Origin: Waddliaceae bacterium
GTDB lineage: Bacteria > Chlamydiota > Chlamydiia > Chlamydiales > Waddliaceae
Reading direction: 5' to 3'
NCBI GenBank assembly: GCA_963724325.1
Contig: CAVRUH010000007.1
Location: 256,001-320,000 of the forward strand
DNA: 64,000 nt
This document shows positions 860 to 54,269 of this stretch, piece by piece (within the stretch, counting starts at the first letter, position 1; every line of letters starts with the position of its first letter). The translations under genes and the position numbers were made by a program. The notes beneath the pieces were generated by a model that saw only the letters and a list, made by a program, of their open reading frames with translations, ran no database searches and was not told where the DNA came from.

Positions 860-1005
860 GCAAGCCCAGAAAAAATAACAGGATATGCCAAGCTGCAAGC
901 CCAGAAAAAAAACAGTATATGCCAGGTTGCAAGCCCTCAAAAAAATAACAGGATATGCCAGGTTGCAAGCCCAGAAAAAATAACAGGATATGCAGGATCG
1001 CAAGC
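860..1005. repeat. Four tandem ~35-bp units (GCAAGCCCAGAAAAAATAACAGGATATGCCAGGTT-like)
   Basis: GCAAGC recurs at 860, 895, 929, 965 and 1000 (periods 35, 34, 36, 35) with near-identical intervening sequence. Confidence 0.9.
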
Positions 1006-1359
1006 GGCAGGATATGAAGGATGTAGGCGGAGGATAGGAGGCAGTGGCGTCAACTTAAAGAAAAATCTATAATTTTTGTCTATATAGACAAGAGGTAGGT
1101 TTTGGAAGGCTGAAGGCCGGGCTCTTAATAGCCCAGACCGCAGTGGAGCAAGCGCAAGCGAGCGGAACGGAGGTCTGGGTTGGGTGACAAATAGAACTGC
1201 GAGGGCTGAAAGCCCGATACATCAAATGACGGCTATTAATGAGTCGGGCTTTCAGCCTTCCAAAACCTACCTCTTGTCTATATAGACAAAAATTATAGAT
1301 TTTTCTTTAAGTTGACGCCACTGCCTCCTATCCTCCGCCTACATCCTTCATATCCTGCC
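1006..1359. repeat. Long perfect inverted repeat (109-bp arms) enclosing a REP-like loop; right arm continues at 3184 beyond the inserted element
   Basis: 1006-1114 is the exact reverse complement of 1251-1359. The loop contains GGGCTGAAAGCCC and AGCCCAGACC...GGTCTGGGTT hairpins. Confidence 0.95.
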
Positions 1360-2945
1360 CCATCACTACTCAATTGGCAATTTTCATAAAGCATTTTCGG
1401 TGATATGCAATGCATGATTTTTACCTCGCCTTTGGTTATGATAATTTTTTCAACTATTAAACGCACTAGTTTTTGCTTCTCATTGAATGGCAAATCTGGA
1501 GCCGATTTTTTAACTCTTTCTAAAATACTTTCAAAAGCATGCTCCCAACCGGATCCTATTTCTTTCATAAGTTTTAAATTTAATCGTTCCTTTTTCTCGT
1601 TCTCAAGTTCGCCTCTTCTTTTTTCTAACCCCTGGGCTCTTTGACTTAGAGAAGTTAAATCTAATAAACCACTTTGATATGCATCTAAAAGTCGCTCTCG
1701 TTCTTTTATAAGCTTTTCTAATTCTTTTCTCATCGAAATTTCCTGCCTCTCGATTTCCTCGATATTTCCGCTTTCCTTTTCTCTTCTTTTAAACTCTTCC
1801 TGCAACATAAATGGATTTTGAAGCATTTGAATTATTTCATTATAGACCAAATCATCGAGCTCATCCTGCTGTATATATCCATTAGAACATTTTGGTATTT
1901 TATTATCCGAATGGCTTCGACAATGATAATAATTTTTACTTATTCCCTTATATCTTCTCATTCTTTTATAAAATTGACAACCACATTCGCCGCACGTGAT
2001 TAATCCTTGAAGCAAGGAAGGTTCTTTGGTATTTCTTAAGGCTAATTCTTTATTTTTATTTATATATTCCTGTGCTGTTTCAAAATCACTTTCACTAATT
2101 ATAATTGGAATATTTATCTCGTACCAAGAGTCTTCATTAGTTTTTTTTCGTGGATTTTTTGGCTTCAGCCGTCTTAAGCCTTTATAATGCCTTATTTTAT
2201 CTATACCCTCATACTTTTCTGATTTACCATAGGCTGCAGTGCCTATATAAGCCTTATTTTTTAATATCCCTAAGATGGTTGCTGGAAACCAATAGGAATT
2301 TCCTTTTGGGCTTTTAATTTGGACCTCGCTCAACCTTCGACAAATTCCATTTAATGAAAGCCTCTCATGAACATATAAATAAAATATTTTTCTTACAACA
2401 TTCGCGTCTGTTTCAACGATTTCAATCACCGTTTGACGTTCATTTTTTATCCTCTGATAGCCATATGGTAGCTTAGGAAGAATAGCTGGATCTCCGCTTT
2501 TTGCTTTATGAATAGTACCTCGACGAGATCGATCTAATATTAATGCTCTTTCATATTCAGCAAAAATCCCCTGAAAATGAGTAAACATTATTGCTTCAGG
2601 AGTGTCACCTTGAGGAACATTTCTAATGAAAAGAACCTTCACTCCACATCGTCGAAATTCATCTAACAAAATAAGTTGATGAGGATAATTTCTGGCTAAC
2701 CTATCTGGTGCATAGATCAAAATCGCGTCGACAGACTCTGTTCGTATCAAATCTCGTAAATCATCTAAAGCAGGTCTTTGAAGACTTTGACCACTTATAC
2801 CGTTATCAAGAAAAAGCCACGTTTCTGGAATTTGATATCCTTCTTTGAGTCCAAATTCTCGAAGAACCAATTCTTGACTTTCGATCGTTTCATCTTCTTT
2901 TTGCTTCTGTGAGGAGACTCTGGCATATATTGCGGCTTTCTTCAT
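1293..2945 (-). CDS. Large serine recombinase (resolvase catalytic domain, recombinase domain, Zn ribbon, coiled coil)
   Basis: YARVSS catalytic motif, DRLAR motif, PYGY, CGECG...C...C zinc ribbon, AGGAG RBS. The last 20 codons and the stop come from the target repeat. Confidence 0.95.
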   Translation of the reverse strand: MKKAAIYARVSSQKQKEDETIESQELVLREFGLKEGYQIPETWLFLDNGISGQSLQRPALDDLRDLIRTESVDAILIYAPDRLARNYPHQLILLDEFRRCGVKVLFIRNVPQGDTPEAIMFTHFQGIFAEYERALILDRSRRGTIHKAKSGDPAILPKLPYGYQRIKNERQTVIEIVETDANVVRKIFYLYVHERLSLNGICRRLSEVQIKSPKGNSYWFPATILGILKNKAYIGTAAYGKSEKYEGIDKIRHYKGLRRLKPKNPRKKTNEDSWYEINIPIIISESDFETAQEYINKNKELALRNTKEPSLLQGLITCGECGCQFYKRMRRYKGISKNYYHCRSHSDNKIPKCSNGYIQQDELDDLVYNEIIQMLQNPFMLQEEFKRREKESGNIEEIERQEISMRKELEKLIKERERLLDAYQSGLLDLTSLSQRAQGLEKRRGELENEKKERLNLKLMKEIGSGWEHAFESILERVKKSAPDLPFNEKQKLVRLIVEKIIITKGEVKIMHCISPKMLYENCQLSSDGAGYEGCRRRIGGSGVNLKKNL

Positions 2946-52028: not shown

Positions 52029-53933
52029 TTAACCAATCTTTGAGAAGCAAACAACGCCCAGGGGAGGGAGAGTGACACTGAGGAAATGTTCCCCTTTGTA
52101 TTGCCTTGTTTTGACGACCCCTAAATTGCCTAGATTGCTTCCGTCGTAATAGATCGAGTCGCTATTTAAGATCTCTTTCCAAATACCCTTTTCAGACATT
52201 TTAAATCGATACTTTTCACGCGGCACTGGAGTAAAGTTACATACGATAAGAATGCGATCTTCAATAGTATTGCCCTTCCTGAAATAGGCAATGACGCTAT
52301 CCTCCCGATTCGCTAAGTCAACCCATTCAAAGCCATCTTGATAAAAATCTTTATTGTAAAGGGCGGGAGTGGTCTTGTAAAATCTATTCAGGTCCCGAAC
52401 CCAGTTTTGCATTCCTTGATGCGGCGCATATTGCAAAAGATGCCACGGCAAGGAGCTTTCATGATTCCATTCATCTCTTTGAGCTATCTCTCCACCCATA
52501 AACAGCAACTTCTTGCCAGGATGCGTATACATGTAACCAAAAAGTAATCTCAAATTTGCAAATTTCTGCCAGTCGTCTCCTGGCATCTTGTACAGCAGGG
52601 ATCCTTTTCCATGAACAACCTCATCGTGCGATAGTGGAAGAACAAAATTCTCAGAAAAGGCATAGACAATGCTAAATAACAACTCATTATGATGAAATTT
52701 CCTGTGAATTGGAGTTTTGTTAAAATAATTTAAAGTATCATGCATCCATCCCATGTTCCATTTCATGCCGAATCCCAGTCCACCCGAAAATGTGGGGCGT
52801 GAAACCATCGGCCATGCTGTTGACTCTTCCGCAATGATTTGAATGTTAGGATAATTCCCATACATACAGGTGTTTAATTCTTTTAGAAAGGCAACGGCTT
52901 CGAGATTTTCATTTCCCCCAAATTGATTAGGAGCCCATTCTCCAGCCTTTCGAGAATAGTCCAGATATAACATCGAAGCTACACCGTCGACGCGCAACCC
53001 ATCCACTCGAAATTTATCACACCAAAACATGGCGCTGCTGATCAAAAAGGCCTTCACCTCATTTCTGCCATAATTGAAAATATAACTGGTCCAGTCGGGA
53101 TGAAATCCCTTTTTTGGGTCTTCATGCTCGTAAAGATGTGTTCCATCAAAATAGGCCAGGCCATACTCATCGGACGGAAAATGACTGGGCACCCAATCCA
53201 GAATGACCCCAAGACCTTTTTGATGCAGCATTTCGATAAGATACATGAAATCTTGCGGGGTCCCAAAACGAGAACTGGGGGCAAAATAACCAACTTTCTG
53301 ATAACCCCATGACCCGAAAAAGGGGTGTTCCATCATAGGCATGAACTCGACATGGGTAAATCCCATGTCAACAAGATAATTGGGAAGGATTTCTGCCATT
53401 TCCCGATAGGTGAGACTGCGGTTATTTTCTTCGGGGATTCGACGCCAGGAGGCGTGGTGGACTTCGTAAATTGAAATAGGGGAGTTTAGGTTATTCACCT
53501 GAGCTTGTTGGATCGGCCACGAATTTTCTTTCCAAATGTATGGAACATCCCAAACTACCGATGCTGTTTTTGGGGGAGTTTCCCACATCAATGCAAAGGG
53601 ATCACCTTTTTCTACTGCTGATGCACCGAATTTCGAAACAATATAGTACTTATAGAGTGCTCCATTGGTAACTCCTGGGATGAATCCTTCCCAAATTCCA
53701 GAGCTATCCCATCGTTGGAAGAGGGGATTGGCTTGTCTATTCCAATTATTGAAATCTGTGACTACAGAAACCGATGCAGCATTCGGCGCCCAAACAGCAA
53801 AGTAAGTGCCTTGCACTTGGTTGTGTGTTGCTAGATGCGCCCCAAATTTTTCGTAAAGACGATAATGCTTCCCTTCCTTAAATAGGTAAATATCTTGGTC
53901 AGTGAACAGGCTATAAGCAGGCGACTCTTTCAT
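52029..53933 (-). CDS. glgB: 1,4-alpha-glucan branching enzyme
   Basis: WAPNA, SWGYQ, DGLRVDGVASMLY, AEEST, SHDEVVHGK; start ATG 53933 or 53939. Confidence 0.97.
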   Translation of the reverse strand: MKESPAYSLFTDQDIYLFKEGKHYRLYEKFGAHLATHNQVQGTYFAVWAPNAASVSVVTDFNNWNRQANPLFQRWDSSGIWEGFIPGVTNGALYKYYIVSKFGASAVEKGDPFALMWETPPKTASVVWDVPYIWKENSWPIQQAQVNNLNSPISIYEVHHASWRRIPEENNRSLTYREMAEILPNYLVDMGFTHVEFMPMMEHPFFGSWGYQKVGYFAPSSRFGTPQDFMYLIEMLHQKGLGVILDWVPSHFPSDEYGLAYFDGTHLYEHEDPKKGFHPDWTSYIFNYGRNEVKAFLISSAMFWCDKFRVDGLRVDGVASMLYLDYSRKAGEWAPNQFGGNENLEAVAFLKELNTCMYGNYPNIQIIAEESTAWPMVSRPTFSGGLGFGMKWNMGWMHDTLNYFNKTPIHRKFHHNELLFSIVYAFSENFVLPLSHDEVVHGKGSLLYKMPGDDWQKFANLRLLFGYMYTHPGKKLLFMGGEIAQRDEWNHESSLPWHLLQYAPHQGMQNWVRDLNRFYKTTPALYNKDFYQDGFEWVDLANREDSVIAYFRKGNTIEDRILIVCNFTPVPREKYRFKMSEKGIWKEILNSDSIYYDGSNLGNLGVVKTRQYKGEHFLSVTLPPLGVVCFSKIG

Positions 53934-53961
53934 TTTCATCCCTCTTGCATAAGGCTTCCCA

Positions 53962-54269
53962 ACAAAAAATACCAGCAAAAAAATAATTTATTCCTACTAA
54001 TAAACAGGATATGAATGATCGCAAGCGGCAGGATATGAAGGATAGGAAAGAATATATTTATCCTTTCCTATCCTTCATATCCTGTAATTTTTTTGTTGAA
54101 CAGACAAAAAATACCAGCAAAAAAATAATTTATTCCTACTAATGAACAGGATATGAATGATCGCAAGCGGCAGGATATGAAGGATGGGAAAGAATATATT
54201 TATCCTTTCCTATCCTTCATATCCTGCCGCTTGCGATCATTCATATCCTGTAATTTTTTTGTTGAACAG
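53962..54269. repeat. Tandem duplication (142 + 166 bp) containing the CAGGATATG hairpin
   Basis: Copies 53962-54103 and 54104-54269; the first lacks 24 bp (CCGCTTGCGATCATTCATATCCTG). Confidence 0.92.

Follow-up and report, generated by a model that had tools for sequence, protein, structure and literature searches.

How does a mobile element with little more than a recombinase gene choose its insertion site, and how does it leave again? The question is raised by a stretch of 64,000 nucleotides from a Waddliaceae bacterium (GenBank assembly GCA_963724325.1, contig CAVRUH010000007.1, positions 256,001 to 320,000; hereafter the window), in which an element encoding a large serine recombinase splits a short repeat. 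A preliminary description of the window suggested that the element may use an intergenic repeat as a renewable safe landing site. We find every copy of the element at the same dinucleotide of this repeat, and we estimate a probability of roughly 0.85 that it targets this fixed TG and moves by way of a circle. The element would excise as a circle, and its joined ends would recombine with any empty repeat, presumably by standard serine-recombinase chemistry with exchange of a 2-bp core; since the TG core is not symmetric, the orientation of insertion would be fixed.

The element consists of two overlapping genes only, the recombinase gene and a small gene, orfB, and is bounded by terminal inverted repeat arms that match at 22 of 24 bases (Table 1). 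Deleting it while keeping one TG restores an exact 27-mer. The genome assembly (2.37 Mb in 11 contigs, 85% complete), chlamydia-like to judge from the named homologues nearest to it, contains seven copies, of which five are identical and two carry the same three substitutions. When the flanks of all copies are tabulated, a check proposed in the preliminary description, all seven lie in the target repeat, at the same TG and in the same orientation, with different outer flanks, and none lies in unrelated sequence. TG is present at both ends of each copy as the 2-bp core, without a longer duplication, and the restored sites show 0, 1, 2, 2, 3, 1, and 0 mismatches to the 27-mer. The chance of landing in the target site is about 6.6e-4 per insertion if all TG/CA positions are considered, or about 4e-3 for intergenic DNA only. 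The two variant copies may be one event, because they fill both arms of one doublet. Three copies are found within 6 kb of contig C1 (24024-29734), two of them in head-to-head arrangement with 66 bp between them, one per arm of a single doublet. One sequencing run from another study carries the same junction at C1:440990, which points to the same organism and not to a new insertion site. A preference for the 2-T over the 3-T form of the repeat was considered and dropped: all seven copies occupy the 2-T form, which is unremarkable given 188 2-T and 34 3-T copies.

Could a single insertion have been copied passively together with its repeat, by the mobilizer of the repeat or by gene conversion? 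The repeat does form arrays and long shared arms, and the two head-to-head copies have their three substitutions in common. However, identical elements are flanked by repeats that show 0 to 3 base differences inside the 27-mer and differ completely outside it, the spacing to the partner arm differs at each occupied site, and the recombinase is intact. We consider passive copying very improbable and largely refuted.

Within the window the 27-mer has five matches, compared with none in 100 shuffled sequences. Its exact and one-mismatch copies occur where the preliminary description located them, as does the variant GCAAAGCGG in both arms of three hairpins (Table 1). The 27-mer had also been called palindromic, which it is not: the folding energy of one unit is only -0.4 kcal/mol, that of a pair -56.7 kcal/mol. 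It represents half of a unit of ~42 bp occurring as inverted pairs that form strong hairpins, and genome-wide the inverted arrangement is seen in 114 of 123 neighboring repeat units. The proposed empty sites are indeed unoccupied repeat units, although the one at 996-1022 belongs to the other arm of the hairpin that the element splits (arms at 1006-1124 and 1241-1359). We count 50 exact copies in the genome and 194 with at most 4 mismatches, spread over 71 loci. The repeat is nearly always intergenic, with 2 of 194 copies centered in open reading frames (ORFs) of at least 120 amino acids, though such ORFs comprise 84% of the genome. It is also lineage specific, with 170 matches in this genome versus 0 to 4 in each of seven family relatives. 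Tandem, degenerate derivatives of the repeat unit, 34 to 36 bp long and inverted, lie on either side of the occupied hairpin (849-993 and 3188-3254). The loop of this hairpin (1125-1260) contains other small palindromes, similar to the hairpin repeat targeted by a relative in the genome G402, which is described below.

Where do such sites come from? Repetitive extragenic palindromic (REP) sequences that form hairpin doublets (REPINs) are intergenic multicopy repeats arranged as inverted doublets, and the cognate HUH tyrosine transposase gene (REP-associated tyrosine transposase, RAYT) is flanked by the repeat. The target repeat resembles a REPIN in its inverted doublets, arrays, long hairpins, intergenic position, and lineage specificity and in boxing a small nuclease gene, but the boxed gene encodes a PD-(D/E)XK nuclease of the GxxExxY type rather than an HUH tyrosine transposase, and its role in mobilization is putative. 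The gene in question (C1:338349-338684) has doublets of the 3-T variant, ~100 bp long and nearly identical, on both sides; neither the other GxxExxY gene of this genome nor its only Y1 transposase gene is boxed by the target repeat. We compared the 30 best-scoring GxxExxY loci of the chlamydial phylum, out of more than 150 matches, together with the two of this genome: among the 31 with full flanks, 19 have a repeat common to both flanks, compared with 0 of 60 control ORFs. The GxxExxY nuclease likely mobilizes the target repeat, and the supply of sites would renew as this REPIN-like repeat is, probably, spread by the nuclease. Of the proposed renewable safe landing site, the safety fits the scarcity of copies in long ORFs, and the renewal is something we infer from the many exact copies, the tandem arrays, and the GxxExxY gene boxed by the repeat. 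At 5300-5690 and 44920-45140 of the window there are composite repeats that combine the target unit, in a nested arrangement, with another repeat of the ACCGAG/ACAGAG type; repeats of this kind flank numerous other GxxExxY genes of chlamydiae. A third repeat, arranged as a tandem array, precedes a RAYT-like Y1 transposase gene (C5:207478-207774) and also resembles the window hairpin at 61895-62020. Another chlamydial genome (G252) has twelve GxxExxY matches, many of them near-identical, which suggests that the gene itself is mobile there.

REP targeting is known for insertion sequences (IS) of the IS3, IS110, IS4, IS256, and IS5 groups, with IS1397, ISKpn1, and ISPsy8 (IS3) and IS621, ISPa11, and ISPpu9/10 (IS110) as examples (PMC1525189, excerpt), and the analogy with IS3 and IS110 members drawn at the outset stands. 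Like the window element, these IS are small and multicopy and break an intergenic repeat at one point, with 5/5 to 10/10 copies associated compared with 7/7 here. They differ in their DDE or DEDD transposases, where the window element has a large serine recombinase. Moreover, the window repeat is tied to a GxxExxY gene and is not a classical REP, and the genome’s own RAYT-like gene is unflanked by it. No guide-like RNA match is seen at the window element; target-element matches show no cognate excess that would indicate guide-RNA targeting, and Rfam returns no match in the window.

Pfam and NCBIfam score the recombinase as a serine recombinase only, and its best Foldseek matches are complexes of serine integrases with att sites. 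Its domain order and fold are those of the SPbeta (SprA/SprB), phiC31, Bxb1, and phiRv1 integrases, with a near-symmetric phage-type attachment site (attP) in both, and as in phage integrases with a directionality factor there is a small adjacent gene, whose product here has a predicted binding site at the second DNA-binding domain and the base of the coiled coil. In contrast to the phage systems, the element lacks phage genes and is essentially the enzyme alone. phiRv1 integrates in the multicopy REP13E12 repeats. A putative site for prophage attachment is present in these repeats (PMC13061034, excerpt). We rejected an identity as a prophage or an integrative and conjugative element (ICE), since the whole element is two overlapping genes, none of them for virions, replication, or conjugation, and has no viral relatives, and an identity as IS607 (37 bits versus a cut-off of 110; 550 amino acids, where the IS607 serine transposase has ~200 and an N-terminal HTH; terminal inverted repeats present, which IS607 lacks). 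Tn4451/Tn4453 (TnpX), Tn5397 (TndX), and the multi-targeting clade of large serine recombinases of Durrant et al. likewise combine a serine-recombinase transposase with 2-bp junctions and several copies (PMC5704250, PMC10083194, excerpts), and the circular intermediate of the TnpX/TndX systems would have its counterpart here. Unlike those transposons, the window element carries neither cargo nor mobilization genes, lacks DUF4368, has a strict rather than relaxed target, and possesses 24-bp terminal inverted repeats, an att site inside a gene, and a candidate directionality factor. Membership in the TnpX/TndX-like clade was rejected on the absence of DUF4368 and the use of one target site.

Is this behavior shared by relatives? 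Of 7,998 scored proteins, 2,388 are homologous to the recombinase, and many of the best homologues are on contigs of 1.8 to 2 kb, as expected for collapsed multicopy elements. A scan of the genome collection with the single recombinase protein as query recovered no relatives, and none were found in viral contigs. Among 112 family loci examined, 61 display a terminal inverted repeat of ~24 bp with the core in one fixed codon register; the others are partial, cut by contig ends, or weak. In a tree of 50 rows from these loci (near-duplicates and partial genes left out), rows targeting reverse transcriptase (RT) genes form one clade (33 rows, support 97/93) and ten repeat-type rows another (100/99); the tree gives no root from which the direction of the target switch could be read. 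Small elements (1.82 to 1.87 kb) occupy hairpin repeats, a different one per lineage. The chlamydial genome G402 harbors an element 49% identical to that of the window, with seven loci in one hairpin repeat family unlike the window’s; two are identical over their full length, one lies in a related palindrome, and two have one flank missing, while 4 of 19 flank matches are empty sites with the same join. Large elements (2.0 to 2.3 kb) carry an additional gene of ~100 amino acids, annotated as ribbon-helix-helix in one plasmid, and for 38 of 46 the insertion site is the PQG motif of an RT gene of a group II intron, with the two orientations equally frequent (19 each). The remaining eight, two of which are cut by contig ends, lack the RT motif. 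Such off-target members are what a promiscuous enzyme that met the repeat by chance might leave, but seven of seven copies at one base here, and the same pattern in G402, refute a chance hit, to which we give practically no weight. Judged from sequence, the family appears to use selfish DNA as its target: GxxExxY repeats, other hairpin repeats, and intron RT genes. In the loci L104, L110, L025, L038, L045, and L100 the two-base cores are unequal between the ends, which suggests mismatch-tolerant joining in several family members.

Several observations weigh against targeting of a fixed site through a circle. At two of the G402 sites the junctions are unequal. Genome G233 contains only 4 matches to the target motif and G123 only 1, so that a multicopy target is unsupported in these fragmented assemblies (370 and 120 contigs). 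The circle junction was not found in the contigs of eight runs (depth ~2 to 7), in the own genome, or in 166 loci, although low-depth contigs drop rare forms and a missing junction there does not amount to absence. Finally, the joined arms give a near-palindromic predicted attP with which the target half-sites appear to share almost nothing, a situation for which the usual serine-integrase model offers no explanation; a crude test for half-site motifs common to attP and the target site (attB) at a 5-bp offset gave 0 to 6 of 13 matches at either offset across seven elements, which is chance level.

The target might instead be read partly as structure, as a gap beside an extruded hairpin, or through a helper protein. 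Such read-out would account for the unrelated repeats in which close relatives land despite their similar attP arms: the arms of seven small-clade elements have a CAAT motif in common, yet their targets are unrelated. In four of six other elements the crossover falls in the unpaired gap between two predicted hairpins, and in a fifth at a hairpin edge; the window crossover adjoins a CGC-AA-GCG mini-hairpin. We nevertheless regard structural read-out as unlikely. Each element uses one exact base in one orientation, which is typical of sequence read-out, and any insertion site within a REP-like repeat would have hairpins close by. The core of L022 lies within a stem, the window site barely folds, the large clade targets a coding motif, and there is no guide-like match between target and element.

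If the element does target its repeat through a circle, what sets the direction? The attP lies within the recombinase gene, whose stop is absent from the element; the last ~20 codons are supplied by the host hairpin, and the integrated recombinase is 533 to 550 amino acids long among the seven copies. Once the ends are joined, the frame continues for 79 codons to give 609 amino acids, spanning the whole 1,826-bp circle; the tail is in frame with the recombinase only after this joining. An att site inside the integrase gene is known from phage Mx8 and the streptococcal rumA ICEs, where, as here, the excised form has another integrase C terminus, and the rumA ICEs also use a serine integrase (PMC4701971, excerpt). 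Unlike in these systems, the tail is encoded by the element’s other end and bears signs of coding selection across the family at 33 to 57% identity, and in the window clade the frame wraps the whole circle, stopping on its own start codon.

We examined the tail in 46 nonredundant elements (39 large, 7 small), 15 of 61 rows having been dropped as near-duplicate or misregistered. Over 17 codons the tail frame stays open in all 46, compared with 14 and 3 for the other two frames. Among codon differences of a single base past the inverted repeat, the large elements have 58% synonymous ones in the tail frame, compared with 19% and 14% in the two alternatives. Eight of 10 small elements have a tail of at least 64 codons, and in seven of the 10 the tail stop overlaps the start; the chance of the tail staying open is 0.005 to 0.07 per lineage with orfB held fixed, the lineages being related. 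By these codon patterns, coding selection acts on the tail that the enzyme would gain on the circle. A natural database protein of a relative, P0203, starts in the recombinase, crosses attP, and continues into the tail. This picture has its counterevidence. The synonymous signal of the small clade (n = 7) is weak (28% versus 23% and 17%), and in small elements a promoter-like match overlaps the same tail bases. P0203 is 1 of 242 tail-bearing matches, its three cluster mates end in host DNA, and it could be a chimera; its predicted fold sets the tail as a strand at a predicted local distance difference test score (pLDDT) of only ~50, and since the window model likewise makes a strand of its host-derived tail, the fold is uninformative. 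A search with the 79-amino-acid tail for longer proteins found none. Sigma-70-like matches in the region number 9, with 8.4 expected, and in L043, read by eye, the promoter-like site of orfA lies downstream of the tail stop.

The candidate directionality factor orfB is kept across the family, with a profile match in 49 of 61 elements and the small-clade lineages missed by the profile found by eye; it has no relatives in Pfam, PDB, or Atlas. A model of its complex with the recombinase scores 0.64, compared with 0.00 for the best control, at least 91% of contacts recur from run to run, and the partner pLDDT is at least 67. The mark applied to this score is reached by 116 of 157 solved complexes versus 2 of 215 mismatched pairs, counts that are only rough with custom alignments, and memory may contribute to the score because integrase-factor complexes have already been solved. 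In the model, orfB residues 10 to 14 pair with the recombinase strand 507-513, the final one in the zinc domain, and the orfB helix lies on residues 474-497, the segment after the coiled coil. The SPbeta factor binds the same recombinase region (PMC11722253, excerpt). The model supports binding of orfB to the recombinase C-terminal domain. The read-through tail is tethered ~25 residues past the strand with which orfB would pair, which suggests competition between tail and orfB. Sequence mimicry of orfB by the tail was rejected, as the two show no profile similarity, which counts against the proposal that follows.

We propose, at slightly less than even odds, that two forms of the enzyme determine direction: excision would be the work of the integrated form, which lacks the tail, together with orfB, and integration would fall to the form made from the circle, whose conserved tail would lie at the edge of the sheet predicted to receive orfB. 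A competing account keeps the same targeting and has a bidirectional enzyme like TnpX, with a tail that alters the stability of the circle-made protein or reflects a promoter, and with orfB as a regulator. TnpX and TndX do perform integration and excision without a factor (PMC5704250, PMC5311408, excerpts), and the forms of the Mx8 integrase differ in activity and not in direction (PMC4701971, excerpt); the promoter-like match over the tail and the weak codon signal of the small clade agree with this account. It fits less well with the clear wobble conservation of large-clade tails, the location of the L043 promoter-like site beyond the tail stop, the predicted binding of orfB to the direction-controlling domain, and the lack of the DUF4368 of the TndX-like clade. 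A bidirectional enzyme is a real possibility, but one we would bet against.

A wider proposal building on the two enzyme forms, which we consider doubtful, is that the element may be the smallest self-switching serine integrase module, in which the tail would occupy the factor site, the circle form would integrate, and the orfB-bound chromosomal form would excise. The family would then be a hyperparasite that keeps retargeting to conserved parts of other selfish DNA without changing attP, perhaps by reading target structure. The parts have precedents in REP-targeting IS, TnpX, and att-split integrases, and the combination appears new in the literature searched. That literature, which left most subscription journals and ISfinder uncovered, holds no description of the family, of REP targeting by a serine recombinase, or of a link between GxxExxY and repeats; the comparison also included bioRxiv 2021.01.26.428298 (excerpt). 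Eight supplementary files of Durrant et al. (PMC10083194, excerpt) gave no match for six terms, their full database lying outside this search. The element offers a compact large serine recombinase whose attP, attB, and candidate directionality factor are all readable, and its relatives with switched targets but alike attP arms are direct material for work on attB recognition and direction control, with use for integrase engineering. It extends REP targeting from DDE and IS110 enzymes to serine recombinases and presents a case of nested selfish DNA, an element in a repeat and the repeat around a nuclease.

Table 1. Coordinates of the element, its genes, and the target repeat within the window
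Feature	Position	Strand	Remarks
Element	1356..3183		1828 bp including both TG dinucleotides; 7 genome copies
Left junction	1356..1380		TG core and terminal inverted repeat arm; inside recombinase reading frame
Right junction	3159..3183		Terminal inverted repeat arm and TG core
Large serine recombinase	1293..2945	-	Resolvase, Recombinase, Zn ribbon, coiled coil; catalytic Ser in YARVSS
orfB	2890..3087	-	~65 amino acids, TTG start, overlaps recombinase start; candidate directionality factor
Read-through tail frame	2942..3181	-	79 codons, no own start at junction; stop overlaps recombinase ATG
Sigma-70-like promoter match	3123..3150	-	Upstream of orfB, over tail codons 11-20; consensus match only
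Left half of split target repeat	1343..1355	+	
Right half of split target repeat	3184..3216	+	
Empty unit, partner arm of occupied hairpin	975..1022	-	Exact 27-mer at 996-1022
Empty unit	5447..5473	-	One mismatch
Empty unit	54017..54043	-	Exact
Inverted pair of exact empty units, long hairpin	54159..54238		54159-54185 minus, 54212-54238 plus
3-T variant, inverted pair	14388..14461		Variant at 14388/14438
3-T variant, inverted pair	14583..14656		Variant at 14583/14633 (1 mismatch)
3-T variant, inverted pair	16659..16732		Variant at 16659/16709

Among the neighboring genes of the window, we observe tandem ankyrin-repeat paralogues (58785-63966), a DUF3638/DUF3645 protein of 2,440 amino acids (14711-24148), and an F-box protein (38851-40074), which are typical host-interaction genes of environmental chlamydiae. 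In addition, two paralogous proteins (12952-14391 and 41498-43522) combine tandem cyclic nucleotide monophosphate (cNMP)-binding domains with a BFD-like 2Fe-2S domain, one of them also having FAD/NAD oxidoreductase domains.

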